Shown piece by piece: positions 9,190-54,190 of a stretch of 64,000 nucleotides of DNA; the stretch's first letter is position 1, and the number at the start of each line of letters is the position of its first letter. A model generated the notes under the pieces. The model was not told the origin of the DNA. It saw only the letters and a program-made list of their open reading frames with translations, and searched no databases. Position numbers and translations under genes: made by a program. The stretch comes from Octopus vulgaris (lineage: Eukaryota). The stretch spans positions 6,696,001 through 6,760,000 of the forward strand of contig OX597829.1 in assembly GCA_951406725.2 (NCBI GenBank). Reading direction: 5' to 3'.

Positions 9190-10615
9190 TTTACTAGGGT
9201 TAGAATCATTATGAAAATAAGGTAATTTTTTCGTTAATTGAAGAAATAATTTGAGACAAGCTATTTCATACAGAAAGGCAACATTAAGAAATCTAGGGTT
9301 AATAACATCATAATATCTATGTTCTGTTATAAAGTATTTATAAAAAAGTTTGTATAAGGCCCCGACCAAATTAATCTTAATTTGATTGGGGAATTGGATT
9401 ATAAACAAAATATTGTCGCTCATATCAGGTGATACATTATAATTTTCAAATTTTCGAACCTTATTAAATATACAAGGAGTTTGATTTTTTATTCTATTAC
9501 TCATATTCCCAATCGTATGGCGATAATTAGAAGATTGGAGCAATACATTGGTTCTCGTATTTTGCATCTCGTTTTCCTTATTTGGACGTTTAACCTTAAT
9601 TACCCTATCCTTATAACTATTCATAGGAATTTGTTTCAGATCTTTACTATCATGATAAACAGGCATGTTGTTAGAGAAATTGATGTTCATAATTTTAGGA
9701 AAATTCTTCAACTTTTGTTTATACTCAGATTTGTTGAGTGTCACATTATAGAAACTAGCATTTTTGTCAAAAATTTCCTTATTACACAATACATTAGGGA
9801 TTCTTTTAGAGATATTATAAACCAAAAAATTCTTTATTGAACAGGGATGATTGCTTTCTACATTCATATACTTAAGATTGGAGTTAGATTTATGGTATTG
9901 CTCAAGGTTGCCAGTAATGATATTAAGACTAACTTCGGGCATCATCCCTATATAAACCTTGCGAATTTCAGGAGAATCCCTCCCTAAGATAAAAAGAATA
10001 TAAATACCCACTAAATCTGTAACTTGGGCAAAATCTGCAGAGCCCATAGCTATGTCAAAGCCATCCCTACTATCTATGTTAGTCCAATACTGGGTTTCAA
10101 ACTCTACAATAGTTTTTCTGGCGTCTAAAATAACATTAGTTTCATTTATATTTATATTTGATTTTTCGCGAATAGAAGGGCCTTATTTAAAACTTCTTAG
10201 TTAATTAAAAAGTAATAGCTATCAATATCTATTTGGATAAATCTATTCTTGCATTTATATTTAATGCTATGGAACCAATTTATTACTACATAGCTATTAG
10301 ACCAGAGTTGTAACTTAATCTTTTCTTTAACAACCGCCATCTATTTATCCAACGTAGCTTTATTAGTTGGACATGGATAGGGCTGTAGGTATAAGAATTT
10401 CATATTATACTGCTTTGAACATCTTTGAAACAAAACTTATGTTTATATATGAATTACTCCATCTTCTTCTTTTTCTCATTCATTGATATCTTAAATACCA
10501 ATATATATCAATACAAAACTAACGTTTAGAGTCTTTTACTGAACTGATATAAATCGGAGTACTAGGACATCCTTTAAAGGATTATAGATTCTTGGTAGCC
10601 CACCTTATGGGAATA
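9190..10615 (-). mobile_element. Decayed Penelope-like element reverse transcriptase
   Basis: GFDIAMGSADFAQVTDLVGIYIL (PLE FDVxMGSxDGAE motif) and YHKSNSNLKYMNVESNHPCSIKNFLVYNISKRI...EIFDKNASFYNVTLNKSEY (PLE thumb); catalytic DD region appears deleted. Confidence 0.8.
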
Positions 10616-13022: not shown

Positions 13023-13480
13023 ATATTAATAGTTATCGCCAAGCTAATATGGCAGTCCATAAATATAGGACGAAAGCTGCCGTTGATTAGCCCCAAGTGG
13101 CCATCGAATCTAGGTAGCTATGTGACACACGAACCTGTGTCCATTATAACCTTCGAACAGGAGAGGTCAGCCACTCCCCCTTGCCCTTTATCAGGGTATT
13201 TGCCCTTTATCAATGCAGAGTAGCCGAACCCAGCAGCCGTCGCTACTGACCGTCTGTTGGAAGGATTATTTACCTAAATTCAGTGGAATGCATCTACTGG
13301 TATTCAAACCTAGAAATATTATTATTTCTAAGTCTCTCTAAAGGAGACTACAGCAGCGGTAGTCAGAAAACTAGTCTCTCACATATCTAGCTAGAGGCGA
13401 TGGTCACTTGGAGCTAATCAACGGCAGCTTTCGTCCTATATTTATGGACTGCCATATTAGCTTGTCGATAAATATTAATA
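13023..13480. mobile_element. Fold-back element, family B
   Basis: ~95-bp terminal inverted arms (tattaat...gccaagctaatatggcagtccataaatataggacgaaagctgccgttgattagc); hammerhead remnant TTGATAA-AGGG caaata CCCT-GA on minus at ~13190-13213. Confidence 0.7.
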
Positions 13481-13550
13481 TACGTACATATATATAGATA
13501 TATATATATATATATATATATAAATATATAAATATATATATGTATATATA

Positions 13551-14309
13551 GGCAGGGCTGGCCTGCTAGGCAGCCGGCCGAATGCTAGAAAGAGATCATC
13601 AACGATCAAACACCAGAACCAAATTTGGCGGGCAGGCCAGCCCTGCCTATATACACATATATTAGAATTTTCTCTGACTCCTCAGATTTTTTGAATGCTG
13701 GACTACTGGTTTTAAATTGATATTAAAATTAATATTAATTTATCTCCCTCATTACTTAAATATTGAAATAAATACGTTCCCTAGTAGTAAGCACTAACCG
13801 CAGTGAATTATTCACTGCAGTCCTTCGGTTCAGGATTTTCTTAGCGCGCCAGAGCCAAGACATTTGAAATTTTATCCCCGATGTAAACGGTAAAACTAAG
13901 CACGTGTCTGTCTTGACACAGAGAGCTGGGGTTAGTTTTACAGTTTGCATCTCGATGACCGAATGTACTGATGAAGTCACGGACATTTGAATTATGTAAG
14001 TAATTCTTTTGTTAAAGACCGAAACCGAGGTATGCATTTAAGTCTGTTTTTTATTTAAATTTTCATATGTCCTGCCCGCCAAATTTGGTTCTGGTGTTCG
14101 CTGAATTCTTCCTCTAGAGAATTTCCCTTGTAGTTTGATCGTTGATGATCTCTTTCTAGCATTCGGCCGGCTACCTAGCAGGCCAGCCCTGCCTATATAC
14201 ACATATATTAGAATTTTCTCTGACTTCTCAGATTTTTTGAATGCTGGACTACTGGTTTTAAATTGATATTAAAATTAATATTAATTTATCTCCCTCATTA
14301 CTTAAATAT
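13551..14309 (+). mobile_element. Retrozyme-like element: 546-nt monomer plus ~130-nt partial repeat, inverted 5' segment, within (TA)n
   Basis: 13632-13762 repeated at 14178-14308 (period 546); 13551-13635 is the reverse complement of 14071-14096 and 14134-14193; one HHR in the monomer. Confidence 0.8.
13962..14038 (+). ncRNA. Type-I hammerhead ribozyme motif
   Basis: AATGTA-CTGATGA-aGTC...GACc-GAAA-CC GA GG-TA-TGCATT: 6-bp stem I, canonical core, predicted cleavage after 14032. Confidence 0.8.
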
Positions 14310-14526
14310 AAATATATATATATATAAATATATATATATATAAATATATATATATATAATATATATATATATATATAAATATATATATAATATATATATA
14401 TATATACATATATAAATATATATACATATATATATACATATATATATATATATACAAATATGTATATATATATATAAATATATATATACATATATATACA
14501 TATATAAATATATATACATATATAAT

Positions 14527-14672: not shown

Positions 14673-16602
14673 CATATGCCAAAGAAACAGCTACGGTGCA
14701 CTGTAGGATAGGGCCACTCCTTGAAAAAGAAGGCACACTCACAGGAAAACCAATGAGGGTAAGTGAAATACTGAATGAGCAATTCAAGAGTGTTTTCACT
14801 CCACCCCTTGGGCATTTCCAAATCAGCAATCCAACTGACTTCTTTAACACTGCAGATATAGAATCAGAGGCGGCGACGATAAATTACATCGATATAAAGG
14901 AAGACGATGTAATAAAGGCTATAGATGAAATGAAAACAGACTCAGCTATTGGCCCCGATGGATTCCCGGCAATCCTCCTAAAAGTATGTAAGAGAGTCCT
15001 AGCAAGACCACTGCAGTTCCTCTTTCAGAGCTTCCTTGCAGCTGGCAAACTTCCAAGAAAACTGAAGGAAGGTAAAATATGCCCTATTCATAAAGGAGGT
15101 AGCAGAGCGGAGGCCAAGAACTACAGACCTATCTCTCTCACCTCACACATCAGCAAGGTCATGGAACGAATAGTCAGAAGGAAACTAATCACCTTCCTTG
15201 AAGAAAATGATTTGCTGCCTGACACCCAACATGGTTTCCGACCAGGAAGAAGCTGCTTAACTCAGCTCCTGCAGCACTATGACTGGGTGCTGAAACAACT
15301 GCTCAACCACTCTAATGTGGAAGTCATATATCTCGACTTCGCAAAGGCCTTCGATAAAGTCGATCATGGAATGATATGTCACAAACTGCGTGATCTTGGC
15401 ATAGTTGGAAAACTAGGAGAAAGGCTTCATGACTTTCTGAAGAATAGAAGTCAGGTGGTAGCAGCCAATGGGGCCACTTCCATTAGCACGCAAATAGTGA
15501 GCGGTGTCCCGCAGGGCACTGTTTTGGGACCACTACTGTTCATAATGGCCCTCTCAGACATGCCCTCAGCCACGCAGAGAGCCACGATCACAAGTTATGC
15601 AGATGATACAAAAGTTTCACAGGCAATACAGAACCCTGAAGACACTAAGCACCTGCAATGTGAGCTGGACGAAATATACAAGTGGGCTGAAAAGAATAGC
15701 ATGCAGTTCAATGCTGAAAAGTTTCAAGCTTTTTACTATCAGCATGCAAAACTGAATGCAATACCCAATGAATACACTGGACCCGGAGGGATTGCAATCC
15801 CAGAGGCACAATCAGTGCGTGACCTGGGTATTCACATGAGTGATGACGCAAACTTTCATGTACATGTTGCTAAACTGACAATGAAATGTAGACGGCTGGC
15901 TGGATGGATTCTTAGAACCTTTAGAACAAGAGAACAAGAAACCATGATGGTCCTCTGGAAGACACTTGTCCTAAGCCACTTTGACTATTGCTCTCAGCTA
16001 TGGTCACCATCCAGTGTCAAGTTGATCACAGAACTTGAGGCGATCCAACGAAGCTACACGAAGAAGATAGCCTCTGTGCAGCATATGAGCTACTGGGAGA
16101 GACTCAAGAGATTAAAGCTCTATTCCCTGGAGCGTAGGCGAGAAAGATATGCCATGATATATATCTGGAAGATCCTGGAAGGTCTTGTCCCAGACTTTGG
16201 CATCGAGAGTCACATAAATGCCAGAACCGGACGCCACTGCGTAGTACCAAGGACTCCAAATTTTCCATCAAGATGTAGGACAAGATATTGTGATAGCCTG
16301 GGCTTCAGAGGCCCACGGCTCTTCAATATCCTCCCGAAGAACCTGAGGGACCTGCATGGTGTAGATGCGGATGTCTTTAAAGTAGGACTGGATCTCTTCC
16401 TGTCAGGTGTCCCGGATGAACCAACTTCACGGCAGGAGGCGCAGATGAGGGCAGCTGCATCGAACTCTCTCATGCATCAGATGGCGTTTGCTAAAAAGCA
16501 TCCGTGAGGTAAAACCGTGTAGCAAACCAAATGGCGGTGCCCCAGCATGGCCACAGGCCATTAGCTGAAACTGGAAAATCAAAATCAAATCAAATCAAAA
16601 TC
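14673..16602 (+). mobile_element. 5'-truncated CR1-type LINE with 3' UTR and (AAATC)n tail, inserted in (TA)n
   Basis: Open RT ORF, short 3' UTR, tail aaaatcaaaatcaaatcaaatcaaaatc at 16575-16602; TA repeats on both sides. Confidence 0.92.
14696..16507 (+). CDS. LINE ORF2 reverse transcriptase (endonuclease domain missing through 5' truncation)
   Basis: 603 aa without stops: [61 protein letters not shown]. Confidence 0.93.
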
Positions 16603-19061: not shown

Positions 19062-19358
19062 GGCATATATTTACATGGAGAAAGCACATATATTTCCACA
19101 CATATGTGCATATATACAAATATATATTCATATGTATGTATACGCATAGACACATAAATACATGCGGATAGGGAGATTGATAGAGAAATATATTCATATG
19201 CGTACACTCAAACATTGGCACACAAACAGACACATATATTGAGTGCGTTTATCTCTTATTTCTAGCAATATATATGTCAGTCATATCTAATGATGTTTAT
19301 TGCTTTCGTCTTCGGTACACGGTTGCCTACTTTACCTATATTATGTGTATATATGTAT

Positions 19359-23374: not shown

Positions 23375-23687
23375 TTTATAGATATATATTAGATGATAAA
23401 ACGAATGGTTTATACCTTGTGTCTTACTGGTAAAGCATGGTCATTTTCAGTGTTCACTAATGGTACAGTAAATGACAGACGGAAGATGGAAGACACGAGA
23501 ATTTAAATTAATCAGGACAATTGTTTTGACATATCTCGCATCGATCTCTGGCGAGTGGAATACTTAACAACTGGTTCAGGAGCATATATCCTATAATTTG
23601 ATGCTTTTCTTTACACGAAATGAGAAAATACCATGTGGAATTGTTATTTTAACTAGTTATATGTATTTGAGACCCGAAGACACACAT

Positions 23688-24130
23688 CTGACAAGGCGAG
23701 CTCCCTAGGCACCGAGCATAGCCAGGTCACTAGTGATTTCGCGTTTACATTAACGCTCGTCAGTAGCTCGCCTCGCTTGCTAGTAAATAAGAAGGTGCAA
23801 TATTGTGGCTATGAGTTTTGACTTTTATTTCTAGCAGTGCTGATGCTGAATAGCACCCTCAGTCGCTTTACTGGAGTGTATATTTTTGCCTTTCGGTTAA
23901 AAATTGCTGACAATTTTAATCTGAAAAGGGTAATTTATTTTAACCCAAGGCACCGGTGAGACCTACAGAAGAGCGTTGTTGTAAACGCGAAAGCATTAGT
24001 GATCTGGCTTACTAGGTGCTTAGGGAACTCACCACCCTTGTCAGTAGATAAGATTATTGTGGTTATGAGTTGTTTTGATTCTTATTTCTAGCAATATTGG
24101 TGTCGAATAGCGCCCTCAGTCGGTTTAGTG
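23688..24130 (+). mobile_element. Retrozyme-like element: ~255-nt monomer plus partial repeat, with inverted 5' segment; two hammerhead copies
   Basis: ~23782-23870 repeated at ~24043-24128; 23688-23768 is the reverse complement of 23961-24044; HHRs at 23720-23768 (-) and 23961-24009 (+). Confidence 0.75.
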
Positions 24131-24133
24131 ATA

Positions 24134-24179
<46 letters not shown>

Positions 24180-25560: not shown

Positions 25561-26042
25561 ATCTAATAATATATGTGAATCTACTAAAGGATATATGATC
25601 ATACGTTTCTCTTATGTTTTTCTTTTTGATTTTTTGTTTTTTTTTTATTTAAAAGCCACTAATAATTTCTACTGTATAGGTTCCATGCGCACTGAAGAAT
25701 GTGACTGTTATATTTGAATTGTTAACTGACCCATAAGTATACTTCTTGTGTATCGTAATGTTTTGGCAGTTTGTGAGGTTGTAGTGGTCGCCACCCGGTT
25801 AGTTTAACAGTTTAATTTATTATTTAAAAGTTGTTTCTCTTCTGGCTGTTTCTTTAGACCATATCTTTTTCTTATATTTTCTTTTTTGAACAAATGTTCT
25901 TTTAAACAATTGCAGCGTGGAAGGTGTTTATAAGCCATTTAAGAAACACACAAAAACTGTTAGATTCGTACATACATACATAAATATATAAATACATACA
26001 CACACATACATACGTACACATACACATACATACGTACATATA

Positions 26043-26270
26043 TATCATGAACTAACTGTTACTTTCTCAGATGCGGCACGAAGTTTTGTCAGTGAAGAGG
26101 TCGCGGTCTGAAAGCGAGGAAAATATTTTGACAATTTAAATTTAAATGTTGAAGTGAATCTAACGGTGTTTGTGTGGTTCTTAAATGGCTTATAAACACC
26201 TTACACGTTGCAATTGATTTCGTTCATGCACACGATCTCAGATCAAGTCACTCGCTATGCAAGTACATCT
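26043..26270 (+). mobile_element. Family A repeat copy
   Basis: Closely similar to 845-1080 including the 5' part; hammerhead-like motif at 26085-26134. Confidence 0.8.
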
Positions 26271-26659
26271 CTTCTTTTAAATTTCTCCGTAAAGTACTTT
26301 TGGTGTTCACATAATAGGGTACTATTTCAATTGCCTACTAAGTGACTGATATATGATTGTTTCTGCTCTTTTTAGACACTAGTTATGTTTGGAGATGTCA
26401 CAGAACCTCTGTTGTGTCTAATTCTCAAAAGGCAAATATTCAATGTATACTTGCTTTACATATACTTTTAAACAAATTTTAGATAGTATTTCGACGACTA
26501 CTACTAAATGGCTGTGTAAGGTACATAATATGTAATGAATATAATGTATTAGAAATATGTCTGAAATCTGCATGTAGTTTTCTCAGGAATCCGTTTAATT
26601 TTATTTCGTGTAGTTATACACTTGCGGTTATAGATAAGAAACTATTGTGAACGTTAACG

Positions 26660-28716: not shown

Positions 28717-29328
28717 CACTACAAGAAGATACTACTATGGTATTAATATTAAGATATATTAAATACAGTATAGTATGAGTGGCTCGCTAGCAATTAAAAA
28801 TCAAATAGGAGTTAATAAATAGAAGGTGCGAAATATCCCCAGCGATTGCTAAAAATAAGTGTAAAAAATTAACTCTGAAAGCTACAAAAAACATTTACGT
28901 GAAGCAAGCTCATCAAACTAAAACGACTTTTCCCTTGTGAAATACATTCATAAAAAGACATAGCTGGACAAGGCTTTATCACGTGATTTTGAAATTTAAC
29001 CAATAAGGTCTTGCTTCCCTTTGGAAGCATCTACCAACTATTAGGCGCTAAATAAATAGTTTGCTTCGTAATAGTAAATGAGAATAGGAAACCGTTGATA
29101 AGCAGCGCCAAATTCAAACGGTTAGATTGTGTGAGGAATACAGGGTGTGCAGGTGTGTATGTGTGTGTCTATGTCCTCGTAACCTAGTGGTTCGGCAAAA
29201 AGAGACTCATAGATTAAGCTTCAAAGTATTGGGGTCGATTTGTACGACTAAAATCTTTAAATACAGTACCCCAAGATGACGGCAGTCATATAACTGTAAC
29301 AAGTAAAAGATGAAAGATAGTGCGTGTT

Positions 29329-31029: not shown

Positions 31030-31031
<2 letters not shown>

Positions 31032-31346
31032 ACAATTGAGGGTAAAATTAACTAGTTATTAATCAATTTCACCAAGTAGTGTTCAGTATGTAAAAGGACC
31101 ATTTAAGGCGAATTCAAAATATTACATTATATAATTAGGGCTTAGTAAAATAAATTACTTTGCCACATACTGAACTTTCTAGAAATAGCAGCCAAAAAGT
31201 TTTTAGCCATTTCCACTACTTTAAGAAAACTTCTCTCAGATAATGTTTACTCATAAATAACTCACGAAGGTATGGAGGTAAAAACAGTAAAATATCACAA
31301 GTACAAAGATCATTTGAGAACGTCAACGTTTCTAGATTAGCCGAAA
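31030..31346 (-). mobile_element. Diverged partial copy of the 562-nt retrozyme-like monomer
   Basis: Aligns with 41869-42176, same (TA)n-CAACAATTGAGGGTAAAA junction; stops within the hammerhead (gagaacgtcaacgtttc). Confidence 0.8.
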
Positions 31347-32560: not shown

Positions 32561-33445
32561 TATAAACGGTTAGATAGATGATAGGTGGGTAGGTTGTAGG
32601 AGAAGGAAATAAAATGTACCCCTATATAAAACAAATTTATATGAAAATTTCTGTGTGCACCAGTATTATAAAGTTGAGTTACTATTTAAATGAAGTAGGC
32701 TAATGTGCGTGTGTGTGGCTGTGTGTGTGTGTGTGTTTAGATGTATGTGGACATACTTATATTAATATATATAAGTGGACGTATATGTAAATATATAAAC
32801 AGAGGTATCATTAATACATTGTGTAAAATGAATATCACTTTGATTCTAAAGGTGAGTGGAATGGGAGAAACACCAAATTTAAGTGCTAGTTTAAATATCT
32901 ATTAGTATTTATATACATTCTTACACGTTCAATACTTGCCCGGAGCGACTATACACCTCATCCCATCGAGGTGGATAAAATATAATGGCAGGCACATTAC
33001 TGCCATTCAATTGATTTTTTTTTCTCTTCTCCTTTGAATTTGAAACCTTGTGCCAATCATTATAATCATGACTGGCATTTATTTTATTCATTATTATTGT
33101 AGTTGTTTGAGTGGCAATGGATGGTAGAATCGGTAGAGAGTCAGATTAAATGTGTAGCATATATTTCGGTTTCTTCTATTTCCATTCTGATTTCAAATCT
33201 GAATCGTATAAGTATTAATAATACTTATACTAGAAACGATTCATTCACTTACATTCGTTTGTATTTGTAACAATGTAAGATATTATCATTTCGATGTGAA
33301 CGGTGATGAGTACGGTTCATACATTAGAATGTAAGACAAAACTTACAGAGTTTTTGTTTTTAGCGCTTAACAAGGCACTATCCTAGAGCTCCCATAACAA
33401 CATTTCACCTTGTGCTCCGGTAAAAATAATTGTAAAATCATTTTA

Positions 33446-33903
33446 GAGTAAAGATTATTTGCCAACATAACAACGCAGTCCTAGTTTAGGACGAATGTTA
33501 CTGTAATTTAGTCCTAGGAGACGTCGTCTCCAGCTGGCTGTACGACACGATCTGTGTCCTTATATTTTCGAACAAGTGAATCTAGCACCCCCATTCAACT
33601 CAAAACAATATCTGTGTATCGCGATTTCCGGGTTATTTCGCTTCATCATCACAGAACAATTATTCCCTTCATCTAACCGAACAATTATTCTGTACTGATG
33701 GAGGGAAATAACTCGGAAATCACGATACACAGATATTGTTTTGAGTTGAGTGAAGGTGCTAGATTCTCTTGTTTGAAAATAAAAGAACACAGATCGTCTC
33801 CTAGGACTAAATATAAAGACACAGATGTCTCCTAGGACTAAATTACAGTAACATTCATCCTACACCAGGACTGCCATGTTATGTTGGCAAATAATCTTTA
33901 CTC
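33446..33903. mobile_element. Fold-back element, family B, with a hammerhead motif in each arm
   Basis: ~200-bp inverted arms; HHR remnants at 33612-33654 (-) and 33690-33732 (+); consensus CTGTG-CTGATGA-aGGG aaataa CCCg-GAAA-TCGCGA-TA-CACAG. Confidence 0.75.
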
Positions 33904-35499
33904 CAAAGTACTGTTGTTGTACATCTCTCGATGTGAGATTTACAAATAGTAATTTTCTAATCATTATTTTAGTTTGAAAAATTCAACGCATGAAAGACCT
34001 TATAATTAATTCAAGCAACTTTACACAAACACGCAATAAGTTAATTGATACCATTTGTATACAGACAATCTATCACGCAAAGGTAATGCCTCTCATTTGT
34101 GGTTATATCAGTCTCTTTATCAATCTTTCTCTTCCCTCTCTCTCTCCCTTGCTTTCACTCTCCTGCTCTCTCTCTCTCTCTCTATGAATATATATATAGG
34201 TGTGTGTATGTGTGTGTGTGAGTATGCGTGTATATGTTTTGCATGTGTGTACATATAAGTAAATTACGGATATAGCAATTATTTTATTCTAAAGATTTTA
34301 GACCCCTGCTACATGTAATACTTGTCGTTTGTGTAGTTGCCTCAGTCGTCACAAATGTCTCCAAGTGAACATATCTTTTTTTTTTTAATTCTAGCTAGGG
34401 TCTATTGTATTTTCAGTTTCTATGGCAATCCTTTCAGACGATGATGCAATCAAATATAGATATTTTAGAAATCGTAAAAGTGTATACGAAACACTTTTTT
34501 GTAAATATTTTCTGATTTTCAGTATACAAATATTGGAAACTTAGAATAAATTACAATACATACAGTTTTATGTGCTGTTGAAAATGGTTGTCAACCTTGC
34601 ATTTATGAGAAGCTAAATATACCGAGCCGCATAATTTCATCATGAAGACTGAGTCTGATGTAACATTATTTATCACTAATGAACAATGTTTGTTGAAATA
34701 TTTTTAAATGGCTACCGGATGAACAATTAATATTTGAGAGATTCCTTAAAAACCTCCATAATTTAACCAAACATTTAGTTCTCTCTATTGCAATTAAAAA
34801 ACGTCATCAAGAACTCACCTAAAATATCTAGATTCATCAAAATGTCAAGTTCTTTGAGACTTTATTAAACGTAGACAGCTTTCAAACTTCATTATTTAAA
34901 ACGAACCGTCAATATATTCGCAAATTATACAACTATGACAACGTCATTACTAAGATATTGGTTTGTAAAACCTATCAACTTTTTCTTAAAATAAACAAGC
35001 TTTTAGCAATATAGCCAAATGCAAAATGGGAGAAATCGAGAGAAACGTTTTAATTTTGAAATTAAAATACAACTGGAATATCGTTACAAACCACGCTATA
35101 AGCGACATATTGAAACGTTTAACCGTTACAAGTTTTAACACAACTAAAGTTTTTCAAATACTTACTAAACATTTCCTTTTAAATCACAAATTCCACAAGC
35201 TTCTCAATTGAGAAATATTAAAATTTTGTATTTATCCACCTAAAATTGTCCAGAGATATTAACAAAATCGTATCTTTTGAAATTAAACTGTATTCTTTGA
35301 ACTGAAATATCAACCATTTTAATTGCATCAACATTACTTGAAAGATTCTGTTGACCAAGAAATCAAGGTAACTGTGTTTCAATTTCACGTGACTATCTGT
35401 TAAAGAGAAATATCTCAATACATTCATGTCCTCGAGCAATATTTGGAGATCTAAGAACAATGACATTGCATACAGTTGATCATGGATGGAACTTCAACT

Positions 35500-41834: not shown

Positions 41835-41868
<34 letters not shown>

Positions 41869-42152
41869 CAACAATTGAGGGTAAAATTAATTAATTATTA
41901 ATCAATTTCACCAAGTGTTCAGTATGCAAAGGGACCATTTAAGGCGAATTCAAATTATTACAATATATAAAAGGGCTTAGTAAAATAAATTACTTTGCCG
42001 CATACTGAACTCATTAGAAATAGCAGCTAAAAAACTTTTTTAAAAAACCATTTCTAATACTTAAAGAAAATCTCTCTCGTATAGTGTTTGGTCAACTCAA
42101 CTCACGAAAGTTTGGGGGTAAAGACATAAAAAAATCAAATGCAAAGGTTATT

Positions 42153-42204
42153 TGAGAACGTACGTTTCAAGATTAGTCATCAAGACACTTCTATCATCAG
42201 CTCA
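42153..42204 (-). ncRNA. Minimal type-I hammerhead ribozyme motif (monomer 1)
   Basis: TGAG-CTGATGA-tAGA..GTC ttgat GAC..TCTt-GAAA-CGTACG-TT-CTCA; palindromic stem III ACGTACGT. Confidence 0.75.
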
Positions 42205-42714
42205 GAAACTCCTTGGTTTGGATTTGAAAACACTGAAAGTGAGAGCATACTCTTTCGGCCTCTCATCGCCTTCGAAGATCTGCTCGTAACTAACAGTGCC
42301 AACAAACTCAAACATGCAAGCGAAGAATTTCTGCCCTCCCCTTTCCACCAGCGTGGGTTAAAATCAACAAACACTCTGCTTATTTCGGTAAAATCCGAAG
42401 CATTAATTAGAGGGAGATTAATTATAATTTCAACAATTGAGGGTAAAATTAATTAATTATTAATCAATTTCACCAAGTGTTCAGTATGCAAAGGGACCAT
42501 TTAAGGCGAATTCAAATTATTACAATATATAAAAGGGCTTAGTAAAATAAATTACTTTGCCGCATACTGAACTCATTAGAAATAGCAGCTAAAAAACTTT
42601 TTTAAAAAACCATTTCTAATACTTAAAGAAAATCTCTCTCGTATAGTGTTTGGTCAACTCAACTCACGAAAGTTTGGGGGTAAAGACATAAAAAAATCAA
42701 ATGCAAAGGTTATT

Positions 42715-42766
42715 TGAGAACGTACGTTTCAAGATTAGTCATCAAGACACTTCTATCATCAGCTCA
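42715..42766 (-). ncRNA. Minimal type-I hammerhead ribozyme motif (monomer 2)
   Basis: Identical to 42153-42204, 562 nt away. Confidence 0.75.
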
Positions 42767-43997
42767 GAAACTCCTTGGTTTGGATTTGAAAACACTGAAA
42801 GTGAGAGCATACTCTTTCGGCCTCTCATCGCCTTCGAAGATCTGCTCGTAACTAACAGTGCCAACAAACTCAAACATGCAAGCGAAGAATTTCTGCCCTC
42901 CCCTTTCCACCAGCGTGGGTTAAAATCAACAAACACTCTGCTTATTTCGGTAAAATCCGAAGCATTAATTAGAGGAGATTAATTATAATTTCAACAATTG
43001 AGGGTAAAATTAATTAATTATTAATCAATTTCACCAAGTGTTCAGTATGCAAAGGGACCATTTAAGGCGAATTCAAATTATTACAATATATAAAAGGGCT
43101 TAGTAAAATAAATTACTTTGCCGCATACTATGCGGCAAAGTATTTATTTACTAAGCCCTTTTATATATTGTAATAATTTGAATTCGCCTTAAATTCCTTG
43201 CATACTGAACACTTGGTGAAATGATTAATAATTAATTAATTTTACCCTCAATTGTTGAAATTATAATTAATCTCCCTCTAATTAATGCTTCGATTTTACC
43301 GAAATAAGCAGAGTGTTTTTGTTTTAACCCACGCTGGTGGAAGGAGGCAGAAATTCTTCGCTCATGTTTGAGTTTGTTGGCACTGTTAGTTACGAGCAGA
43401 TCTTCGAAGCGATGAGAGCGAAAAGTATGCTCTCACTTTCAGTGTTTTCAAATCCACCAAGATTTCTGAGCTGATGATAAGTGTCTTGATGATAATCTTG
43501 AAACGTAGTTTCAAATAACCTTTGCATTTGATTTTTATGTCTTTACCCCAAACTTTCGTGAGTTGAGTTGACCAAACACTATACGAGAGAGATTTTCTTT
43601 AAGTATTAGAAATGGTTTTTTAAAAGGTGCTATTTCTAATGAGTTCAGTATGCGGCAAATAATTTATTTTACTAACCCTTTTATATATTGTAATAATTTG
43701 AATTCTTAAATGTCCCTTTGCATACTGAAACTTGGTGAAATTGATTAATAATTAATTAATTTTACCCTCAATTGTTGAAATTATAATTAATCTCCTCTAA
43801 TTAATGCTTCGGATTTTACCGAAATAAGCAGAGTGTTTGTTGATTTTAACCCACGCTGGTGGAAAGGAGGGCAGAAATTCTTCGCTTGCATGTTTGAGTT
43901 TGTTGGCACTGTTAGTTACGAGCAGATCTTCGAAACGATGAGAGGCCGAAAATATGCTCTCACTTTCAGTGTTTTCAAATCCAAACCAAGGAGTTTC

Positions 43998-44049
43998 TGA
44001 GCTGATGATAGAAGTGTCTTGATGACTAATCTTGAAACGTACGTTCTCA
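43998..44049 (+). ncRNA. Hammerhead motif in the inverted arm
   Basis: Same sequence on the plus strand; a deletion-damaged copy lies at 43467-43513. Confidence 0.7.
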
Positions 44050-44240
44050 AATAACCTTTGCATTTGATTTTTTTATGTCTTTACCCCCAAACTTTCGTGA
44101 GTTGAGTTGACCAAACACTATACGAGAGAGATTTTCTTTAAGTATTAGAAATGGTTTTTTAAAAAGTTTTTTAGCTGCTATTTCTAATGAGTTCAGTATG
44201 CGGCAAAGTAATTTATTTTACTAAGCCCTTTATATATTGT

Positions 44241-44477
<237 letters not shown>

Positions 44478-49045: not shown

Positions 49046-49661
49046 CAGTAGTTATCTAAAGCTTGCGTACACACTTGGTAGTATACCGATTAAAGCAGTT
49101 TCACTGTCTATGGCTAACTGATGTCTTCCACAGGATGAATATGAAAGCCACTGGATCTACTTCGGGAATTATTCAGTGTTCATCGAGTGTGTAACAAAAT
49201 AAGAGAAAGAGAAAATGGAATTCACGCGATCCTGTATTAATCATTAAGATTGTTTCGACGCATTCTGCATCGGTCCCATGTGGGTGAGATTTTGTACAGA
49301 TGGCTGTGCTGCTTCATTCGGTGAGGATGTGCCGCGGCACGTTATATATCGCTCATTAATCTCTGTTTCGCATATTTCGATTGGAATAAAGTTTCTTCAT
49401 TTACCAGTAGCTAGTGGCGTACAAGTGAGAGATCAGAATTTAGAAAAAATGTCACGAAAGGAGTGAAAGGAATGATTTTAAAATAGTACTTACATTTGTT
49501 TTAACCTATTGCATTCATATTCCACATGACAGAACTTAGATCAATATAAGAAATTATTATCACGCCTCTATGAAACAGTATGGCTGAAAGGTTGAGACGT
49601 TAGTTTCATAAACTTGAGATTTCCGGTTCGATCCTACTGCTAGGCATCTTGTGCAAATATC

Positions 49662-51399
<1,738 letters not shown>

Positions 51400-52463
51400 T
51401 ATCAATAGATAATGTGTACCTCTTTCCCGGATAAATTCCATTTGTAAGTTGAGTTCATTGTCGTGACCTGTAAGGATGAGATATTCTGGAACCTTTTAGA
51501 GCTTAAATTGGTTTATACTTCCCTCTTATCTTACCTGTTTCTGATATCACTTTCTCAATTTTTTTAAATTTCACTTTTCTTTTTATATAACATATAATAA
51601 TACACAGATTTTGCAACACATTGATTATAAACCTTTTCGCTCTCTGCCCTTGATGTTTATCTAGATCCCATTGTAGCGTCCTATATTTCATAGCGTAGGG
51701 GCCCTTTTAACTGAAAATAATGAAAAGTGTTTACGTCACCCCCACCTACCTCTTTTTATGGACTTTTTGCACTATCTAATTGAATTCTTCTAAAGTTTGT
51801 TTCTTTATGTGTTAAGGGGTACTTAAGAAATTAAGATTCGAGGGAACATCTAACAATATTTATTTACAACCTGCAGCCAGTTCTGAACTGTCAACTCTTA
51901 ATGCTTTTATTCACAATAAACGCAGTCTACTACCATTAGATCTTTTAATGGTGATAGATAAAAATTAGAAATGAATTACAACCGCATGGTCTATTCCTGC
52001 CACTCCAAAATTGTAGCTGTTTTTCTCTTAGATGATTTCTGCTGTAATAATGGCAACGTGGAATTCCTTCATCTTTTAGCTCTCTTTTTTTTTGCAACAG
52101 ACGATGACACTACATTTGAACTGATGTAATGCTTGTATTGTTCGATTGAATGGTGCCGTCTGAAATGGTCGTATTACGTTAACACCTGACATCATGTTAC
52201 TAATTTCATTTTATTCACCTTACTTCCGGGTGTGCGGATAATACCGGACTGACTTGGTGCCTCAACTTAAGGGCCTAATTCAATTGAATCTTAAATATAT
52301 CTTTGTATATGAGTATATGTATATAAAATGATAAGAGAATATATACATAGAGACAGTGAGAATATAACAATATGAGTGTGTGTCTGTGTATATATATGGC
52401 AAATGGAAGATGGAAGTGATTATTATTAATCACGACAATTGTTTCGGCACATCTAGCATCAAT

Positions 52464-52694: not shown

Positions 52695-54190
52695 TTATTA
52701 ATTTCGGTTATGTGTCTGCGGTCGTACTAGAGCACCACCGTGATATTTCACTTTTACTTATGACTCTTCTTCGGCTGATTTCCCCCAGGGTGGTGCGGTT
52801 TCATCATCACTCCTGTATGTGCTATTTTCTTGGTTGTTGATCCATTTTCTGTATGAGGGAGATTCACACCGCTGCCCTTCTCTCTACCTCATGGAGGGCC
52901 GTCGGCTTATCTGGTATGTGGAGTACACAATGTTATTTCTTTTTTGATGACATTAATGCGCACATTGTGTAGGTTACTTAATTTTTGTGTCATGGCATTG
53001 GCGTGCTGCAGGTCTTTGGAACCTAAGCTATTGCATTGCTTTCTCTTGTATTTAGACGGAATGGACTGTACCTCTGTAAAATACAACGGCATCCAGTTCG
53101 GGCATTTATATAACATTGTGTTTCACCTTCACTTTAGGGAATAAAGTCGTAGGTTTTTCATCTGCTGCACTGTTACAATCCTTTCACTGTAGAGACATTG
53201 GACTGCTTCAATCTTCGCTCTTAGTTTGGCGTTATGTGGTGACCATAGCTGAGAGGTGTAGTACAGGTAGCTGAGAACAAAAGATCTCCACAGGCTCAAC
53301 ATAACTTCTTGGTCTCTTACCTTAAAGGACATTAGTATCCACCCTGTCTGTTGTCTGCACTTTGTTGCTATCTTGGCAATGCACATACTGATTCCGAAGT
53401 ATGTTACTCTGTGATTGCAGTACCTTCATGGTCCGTATATGAAGGCTGCGCTGCATTTGTGAGCTGATAGTGCAGTGCTTGAAATTTTCCAGTGTTAAAC
53501 TGTACATCGTTTACTTCGAAAACCACTTTTACTTTGCATGTAGGTCCCATTGTATGCTTGCGAGGTCATCTGAATTCTTTATTGCTTGTGATAGCTTTTT
53601 GCATCATTAATGTAGATAGTGACACCCGCTGTCTGAGTAAACATGAGCATGTCTAAGACAGTTATTATAAACAGTAATGGTTCCAGGGCAATTCTCTAGG
53701 GAACGCTACTTAGAATTTGAGCTTTCACAGAGAGGGCTGCAACTGCCTCACTTCTGTCTTTAAGGAAATCATGCAACCACTCTCCAAGTTTACTAGTAGC
53801 TTGTGACATATCGTACCATGATCTACGTTCTCAAAGGCCTTCGCGAAGCCAAGATATATTATACTGCCATCTAAATAGTCAGGGAGCTGTTTCAAACCCC
53901 AGGCATGGTGCTGTAAGTGATGTGTGACGCAGCTTCCTCCTGAATGAAACTCATATTGTGTATTGTTTAGTTCGTAATTTTCTTCTTGGAACATTATCAG
54001 TGTCTTTTTGATGATTTGTTCCATGACTTTACGTATAAGTGAAGTCACAGAGATTGGCCAGAGTATTTAACCTCCGCTCTGCTCCTACCTTTGTGGATAG
54101 GGCATATAATGCCTTCTTTATGCTCTTTAGGAAGTTTATCACTTGCAAGGAAACTCTGGAAAATATCTGAAATGGTTTCGCTAAAGCCTG
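52695..54190 (-). mobile_element. Decayed CR1-type LINE, 3' portion
   Basis: IYLGFAKAFENVDHGTICHKL, KCRQQTGWIL, SQLWSPH, LRLYSLK; colinear with 14696-16507; UTR-like end at ~52695-52742. Confidence 0.88.

Follow-up and report, generated by a model that had tools for sequence, protein, structure and literature searches.

A fossil retrozyme-like insertion with an inverted head in Octopus vulgaris, probably moved by a Penelope-like element

Positions 23688-24135 of the 64-kb stretch of Octopus vulgaris DNA analysed here (the window) hold a small repeated element. Its best explanation, and a likely one, is that a non-coding, non-autonomous retroelement was inserted here and is now a fossil, one that has a C-A-B unit of ~255 nt with one canonical type I hammerhead, belongs to a family of animal non-LTR retrozymes and was mobilised by a Penelope-like element (PLE). 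Contigs from sequencing runs show the family to be multi-copy and dispersed, with a defined unit order and with a hammerhead core that, as reconstructed from their letters, is canonical; it is probably a new family of a known kind, namely a non-LTR retrozyme, probably moved by a PLE. Judged by their sequence, both ribozymes at the locus have decayed, and this copy is read as dead and devoid of ribozyme function. The partly flipped front end of the insertion points to Penelope-type elements as the carrier.

Layout of the insertion

The insertion opens with an inverted segment (A'), continues in direct orientation as B-C-A-B (23782-24135) and ends against a (TG)n microsatellite (Table 1). A BLAST self-comparison of 23670-24140 found an inverted repeat (23960-24044 against 23769-23688) and a direct repeat (24055-24138 against 23801-23881), each at 79% identity with an E value of 3e-14, and global alignment extended both matches, with 78 of 98 aligned letters identical in each. 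The unit period is 254-257 nt, the lower figure being taken from the BLAST starts. The ~255-nt period and the inverted 5' segment recorded in the first-pass annotation were thus borne out; the CCCTCA that it gave as the end is present as a motif, but the 3' end of the insertion lies at ~24135, ~14 nt beyond it.

No open reading frame (ORF) was found at 23688-24135, so the repeats enclose no reverse transcriptase (RT) or GIY-YIG frame; the longest stop-free frame in the unit has 48 codons, and the GC content of the unit is 39%. The surroundings, across the 64-kb window, are AT-rich animal DNA laden with microsatellites. A search for a target-site duplication gave no clear one, the best candidate being an 8-nt microsatellite-like word ~20 nt from the junction. 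The CTG at the junction with the flanking repeat was assigned from the continuation of the flanking family at a contig loose end at 23585.

Table 1. Segments of the insertion and its edges, in window coordinates
Feature	Positions	Strand	Description and basis
A'	23688..23781	-	Inverted 5' piece carrying a type I hammerhead; BLAST and global alignment
CTG (3 nt)	23688..23690		Present both in the flanking repeat and at the outer edge of A'; candidate microhomology for the second primer
B1	23782..23881	+	Direct part, restarting at the unit position of 24043; global alignment
C	23882..23945	+	AT-rich rest of the unit; after B and before A in other copies too
A	23946..24044	+	Second hammerhead, with a distal stem I extension (~23948-23955 with 24014-24021)
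B2	24043..24135	+	3' end of the insertion; central part common to very many genomic pieces (depth bins 24050-24124)
(TG)n microsatellite	24134..24175	+	Abuts the 3' end; likely target edge

Two decayed hammerheads at the locus

In the minus-strand copy, C3 lies at 23763, the cleavage position falls between 23725 and 23724, and U16.1 is changed to C at 23726. The first-pass annotation had written this hammerhead in the same way, and a type I descriptor allowing at most one core mismatch returned it as the sole match on both strands of the 64 kb, while 0 of 10 block-shuffled windows gave any match. The plus-strand copy (C3 at 23966) retains an intact UC site at 24003-24004 and has a mutated core (U4A at 23967), both in agreement with the earlier description, from which further mismatches in stem I (23962) and stem III (23993) were missing. 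Rfam returned no hammerhead on 23660-24135, where five unrelated matches stood at E<=10, nor among the 150 listed of 248 matches for the whole window, nearly all of which were microsatellite-driven miRNA matches; exact-motif scans gave 0 matches in metagenome contigs and 0 in viral contigs. With both copies mutated in the core and lying on opposite strands, a cleavage-competent element at the locus is not supported, nor does the locus count as an 'active non-LTR retrozyme' in the sense of the preprint 10.64898/2026.07.22.740005.

The two copies had also been proposed to complement each other. In the predicted fold of the full transcript of either strand, A pairs with the complement of A' over 72 or 74 bp, on which ground the locus is read as non-functional. 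Functional complementation is not supported, since two mutated copies on opposite strands would pair over 72-74 bp in any transcript crossing the locus, and the copies complement each other on paper only, for working out the ancestral ribozyme. It is scarcely credible that the damaged copies form one working hammerhead in trans, with the minus-strand RNA as the catalytic strand and the plus-strand RNA supplying the UC site: although the isolated pieces are predicted to co-fold into a full three-way junction with an extended stem III at -20.8 kcal/mol, and metazoan hammerheads act as dimers (PMC4209133), both strands would have to be transcribed, either full transcript would lock A to the complement of A', and the 20% divergence between the copies carries no sign of constraint. 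The isolated pieces co-fold because both descend from one near-palindromic sequence.

A dispersed family in sequencing contigs

Part of the stretch is contained in 9 of 24 listed sequencing runs, under four organism codes, and none of the nine is listed as RNA. Four runs were compared at 80% likeness over 23400-24135, with 1122, 662, 829 and 91 contigs placed, many of which fall on the flanking repeat and not on the element; the contigs are short, their depth is not equivalent to copy number, and one of the runs (X3) may be a source of the analysed DNA. At 23726, the letter that restores U16.1 (G>A) accounts for a depth of 876/1156 in X3 (15 contigs), 35/66 in X4 (6 contigs) and 844/1114 in X6 (14 contigs) and is the majority letter among the other copies. 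The family is multi-copy on this position alone, at which 6-15 contigs per DNA-like run (X3, X4 and X6) differ from the locus. On the plus copy, U4 is restored in at least two X3 and at least two X6 contigs together with the stem I letters at 23962 and 23964, and the stem III letter at 23993 is restored in at least two contigs of each of these runs. G8A is present in three of the four listed U4-restoring contigs (2/2 in X3, 1/2 in X6), so those contigs would be dead too.

When the family letters are inserted and G8 keeps the state of the two window copies, pairing is complete in stem I (5/5), stem II (5/5) and stem III (4/4), and the earlier statement that the consensus is a fully canonical hammerhead gains support from letters drawn from other copies. 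The two outcomes that the first-pass annotation had named as damaging to its reading did not arise: other copies in three DNA-like runs show that the direct repeat is no local duplication unique to this locus, and the letters of those copies give a complete canonical type I core instead of a consensus without one. An intact young copy, or an array of two intact units, was not found among the short contigs of the runs compared. In folding predictions, the decayed circular-monomer proxy has a modest structure, with 59% of its bases paired at -60.8 kcal/mol and a z of -1.6 relative to 100 shuffles, and the minimum free energy fold of the extended minus copy with majority letters is not the hammerhead fold (z -0.97).

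The order of the segments recurs in other copies, where B leads into C (joints 24131->23879 in X3 and X6 and an X6 loose end at 24131), C into A (a contig record spanning 23912-24026) and A directly into B (contig loose ends and joints), and from these three links the family unit is a closed C-A-B repeat. Other copies continue ~25 nt into C beyond the point at which the locus copy stops. Segment B is far more abundant in the contigs than A or C, so it may be shared with other families. Within it, 24075-24099 stands far out from the remainder of the unit, with an X3 depth ~2000 times that of a single-copy sequence; this part of B also has an exact match of 18 nt at 19254 and is possibly a motif common to many families. 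Contigs of a run guessed to be RNA (X11) fall on B, C and the flanking repeat, with none on the hammerhead segments, a distribution that carries no weight on expression.

Ribozyme class and retrozyme assignment

In the reconstructed ribozyme, stem II is 5 bp long and has G10.1-C11.1, A9 is not followed by an additional base, loop 2 has 6 nt, stem III is short (3 bp) and near-palindromic, and stem I resumes beyond an internal loop or bulge as a distal helix of 8 bp. The stem I bulge might make the usual tertiary contact with loop 2, as in the Schistosoma structure. Canonical metazoan motifs possess a 6-bp helix I, a 4-bp helix II and a short palindromic helix III, whereas the minimal motifs of PLEs are distinguished by an extra base after position 9, a long helix II and a helix III that is reduced or missing (Cervera and de la Pena 2014, PMC4209133). 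None of these minimal features is present in the reconstructed ribozyme, which by its letters fits better with the canonical class than with the minimal PLE class, so that the label 'non-LTR retrozyme' fits.

Non-LTR retrozymes of 150-450 bp carry the canonical hammerhead class (PMC7229834), and the period of 254-257 nt places the octopus element within the metazoan size range, as had been stated earlier. It shares with them a canonical core (in the family), a tandem unit of this size, the lack of coding sequence, a GC content below 50% and a multi-copy state. Animal non-LTR retrozymes, as described in PMC7229834 and 10.64898/2026.07.22.740005, likewise have a 150-450-bp non-coding, low-GC unit with one type I hammerhead; they occur as dispersed monomers and dimers, include a mollusc example (Mytilus) and have a proposed dependence on PLEs. 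The octopus copy is different from them in being dead and in bearing an inverted 5' head, which is absent from the passages of these two descriptions that were compared. In the literature searched, no report of a cephalopod retrozyme was found, nor any paper on octopus hammerheads as judged by titles and abstract openings; the main text of the paper that supplies the age calibration below (PMC13282606) contains neither 'ribozyme' nor 'hammerhead', and repeat libraries could hold the family unnamed.

The insertion could instead be the 5'-truncated end of an autonomous PLE, the 'unit' being its pseudo-LTR (pLTR) and the ORF-bearing body having gone uncopied. This is unlikely, in that the locus runs B-C-A-B without coding sequence between the repeats, all three junctions occur in other copies, the ribozyme is canonical rather than minimal and the unit has no ORF, even if the insertion anatomy is typical of PLEs, the PLE-type motifs of Schistosoma include hammerhead pairs 100-700 bp apart on opposite strands (PMC4209133), and the excess of B over A and C would suit such an origin.

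Insertion anatomy and a probable Penelope-type mechanism

Partial tandems, an adjacent inverted 5'-truncated copy and a bias toward microsatellites are traits of PLEs (PMC8557442, PMC3846280). The locus shows the partial tandem with the adjacent inverted 5' piece, and this combination of inverted head and partial tandem is a documented PLE insertion pattern that had gone unremarked in the earlier annotation. The abutment of the 3' end on (TG)n is in keeping with the PLE preference for microsatellite or AT-rich targets and counts for little, as microsatellites occur everywhere in the window. Endonuclease-bearing PLEs with pLTRs and minimal hammerheads (PMC4209133, PMC8557442, PMC3846280, PMC11167929) share with the octopus element the partial tandem, the adjacent inverted 5'-truncated copy, the type of target and a hammerhead in the repeated end. 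The octopus element is distinct from them in its lack of an ORF and its canonical hammerhead; its inverted piece sits at the very site of the absent direct piece, whereas that of PLEs stands head-to-head with a full pLTR. In this copy the 3' end lies ~90 nt past the outer end of the inverted piece, which may set it apart from PLEs with their optional tail of 30-40 bp.

The breakpoints are matched, as the inverted piece starts at the unit position of 24044 and the direct piece restarts 2 nt inside it, at that of 24043; two contig records also start at 23782. Together with the three shared bases, these breakpoints form the layout that priming on one RNA by two DNA ends would be expected to produce. 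In L1 twin priming, as Ostertag and Kazazian reportedly described it in 2001, 5' inversions are said to arise from two DNA ends priming one RNA; these inversions have in common with the octopus locus the start of the inverted piece at the end of the direct piece and a short microhomology with the flank. Different from L1, the octopus element has no poly(A) tail or L1-type target duplication, and its template would be a tandem small RNA. In the case of PLEs, a purified protein has been found to nick each of the two strands and extend it, to begin synthesis at internal positions of the RNA and to accept RNA that has not been cleaved (PMC11167929).

The arrangement is not confined to this locus, as flipped A leads into B at joints 23740->24074, 23745->24060 and 23769->24081 in three X3 contigs and at 23769->24081 in X6, with inner ends that differ. 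This recurrence argues against the rival view that the pattern was made afterwards from an older repeat with a hammerhead, by a chromosomal micro-inversion and/or a local duplication, a view that is very unlikely on two further grounds: one inversion would require A' to have lain inside the flanking repeat and the right half of that repeat exactly between A and B, and a sequence-unrelated young element at 13545-14318 (97% identity) has the same geometry. What speaks for it is that the flanking repeat is broken and inverted as well (23586-23690), so that 23586-23781 could be a single inverted block. That flanking repeat (23470-23690) is a different high-copy repeat, in which 23586-23690 has been flipped at its own site, as compared with its family, with a loss of ~9 nt, and its minus strand at ~23515-23530 resembles the 3' half of a minimal hammerhead; its inverted head and that of the element meet with 3 shared bases and no spacer.

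Under the preferred reading of a retrozyme mobilised by a PLE, tandem copies would have been transcribed, and the hammerhead could have cleaved the transcripts into single units. Other retrozymes are known to circularise. An RT/GIY-YIG endonuclease of Penelope-like type, supplied in trans, would have nicked both strands at the (TG)n edge; one DNA end would have been extended from the end of B through B-A-C-B, while the other may have paired through CTG with the end of the upstream A and been extended along A to give the inverted head, the first cDNA stopping where the second began. The template would have held at least 1.75 units, either as an uncleaved multimer or through more than one round on a circle, and the inserted copy would then have decayed neutrally, ending without ribozyme function.

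Animal retrozymes have been argued, from co-occurrence and phylogeny, to be non-autonomous PLE derivatives (Li, Clavereau and Pollet, bioRxiv 10.64898/2026.07.22.740005), and the text of this preprint contains none of the terms 'inversion', 'mollus' or 'octopus'. No paper on PLE twin-priming inversion was found, judged by titles, and retrozyme, inversion and Penelope came together only in one review. No partner PLE could be tied to the family. A decayed 311-aa frame at 9250-10182 (-) was considered as such a partner and set aside; it matched no Pfam family and no homologue in the searches, for which reason it is not counted as support, and its Atlas leads were all below 0.8, a weak GIY-YIG lead standing at 0.77. 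It bears a motif that we take to resemble PLE reverse transcriptase. The broader proposition, that cephalopods have a retrozyme family with a canonical hammerhead and that an in-place inverted head is a regular feature of its insertions, is tentative and falls somewhat short of an even chance.

Age and orthologues

The JC distance between the two copies is 0.24 (20% difference). On a calibration in which JC 0.09 corresponds to ~25 My and 0.2 to ~56 My (PMC13282606), the age at 0.12 per copy would be roughly 30-35 My, a maximum if differences between the template units predate the insertion. Orthologous contigs span the insertion in organism B (540 nt, 2 differences) and organism C (362 nt with 6 differences, and 368 nt with 5 differences and 9 gap letters). 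The insertion is therefore common to three organism labels, and U4A is kept in the orthologues of organisms B and C.

Other elements in the window

The first-pass annotation had seen the same architecture, with a different sequence, in an element at 13551, and this was confirmed at 13545-14318. The repeats of this young element are 97% identical, inverted 13545-13611 matching 14133-14199 and direct 13632-13774 matching 14178-14318; it has an extra inverted bit at 13609-13639, an overlap of 16-22 nt and, at 13968 (+), a hammerhead-like motif in which A9 is followed by an additional base, stem II is long and positions 10.1 and 11.1 are mismatched. The decayed relative that had been placed at 28780-29050 (-) could not be established and is borderline (nhmmer E 7.2): for three queries, equally high scores were reached by 1, 4 and 13 of 500 shuffles and by 2, 0 and 3 of 397 window tiles, and core-motif scans of the window gave no match there. 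This region has a weak likeness to B and a palindromic stem-III-like word without a catalytic core, and it could represent a far more ancient relative.

Tandem and inverted copies of a ~560-bp repeat, with up to 100% identity, occupy 41867-44246 and 31030-31340 and bear CTGATGA...GAAA motifs at 42200, 42762, 43471 and 44002, likely representing another PLE-type tandem/inverted insertion. A dispersed family of 90-96% identity, with inverted pieces beside (TA)n tracts, is located at 845-1079, 25904-26271, 49659-49996 and 51063-51402. A long open LINE reverse transcriptase frame at 14702-16504 (+) (RVT_1, E 1e-30) has a closest relative at 88% identity, its best named relatives in Argonauta hians at 59% and 64%, and decayed relatives at 53237-54183. 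The Argonauta relatives, together with SINE look-alikes, point to an octopod as host. Long inverted-repeat MITE-like elements lie at 33442-33907 and 13023-13481, with arm identities of 82% and 92%, respectively.

Significance

The locus copy itself is a fossil of little consequence, while its family, if absent from existing repeat libraries, would add cephalopods to the hosts of non-LTR retrozymes. Of broader use is the matched inversion breakpoint, a possible fingerprint of the mobilising enzyme; it bears on the identity of the enzyme that mobilises animal retrozymes and on whether the template is a circle produced by cleavage or a multimer left uncleaved. Regular in-place inverted heads, if they prove true of the family, would be a locus-level fingerprint of a Penelope-like enzyme priming twice on one multimeric retrozyme RNA; they would add mechanistic evidence to a retrozyme-PLE link now based on co-occurrence and phylogeny, and would mean that several unrelated small parasites in this genome share one double-priming reaction.
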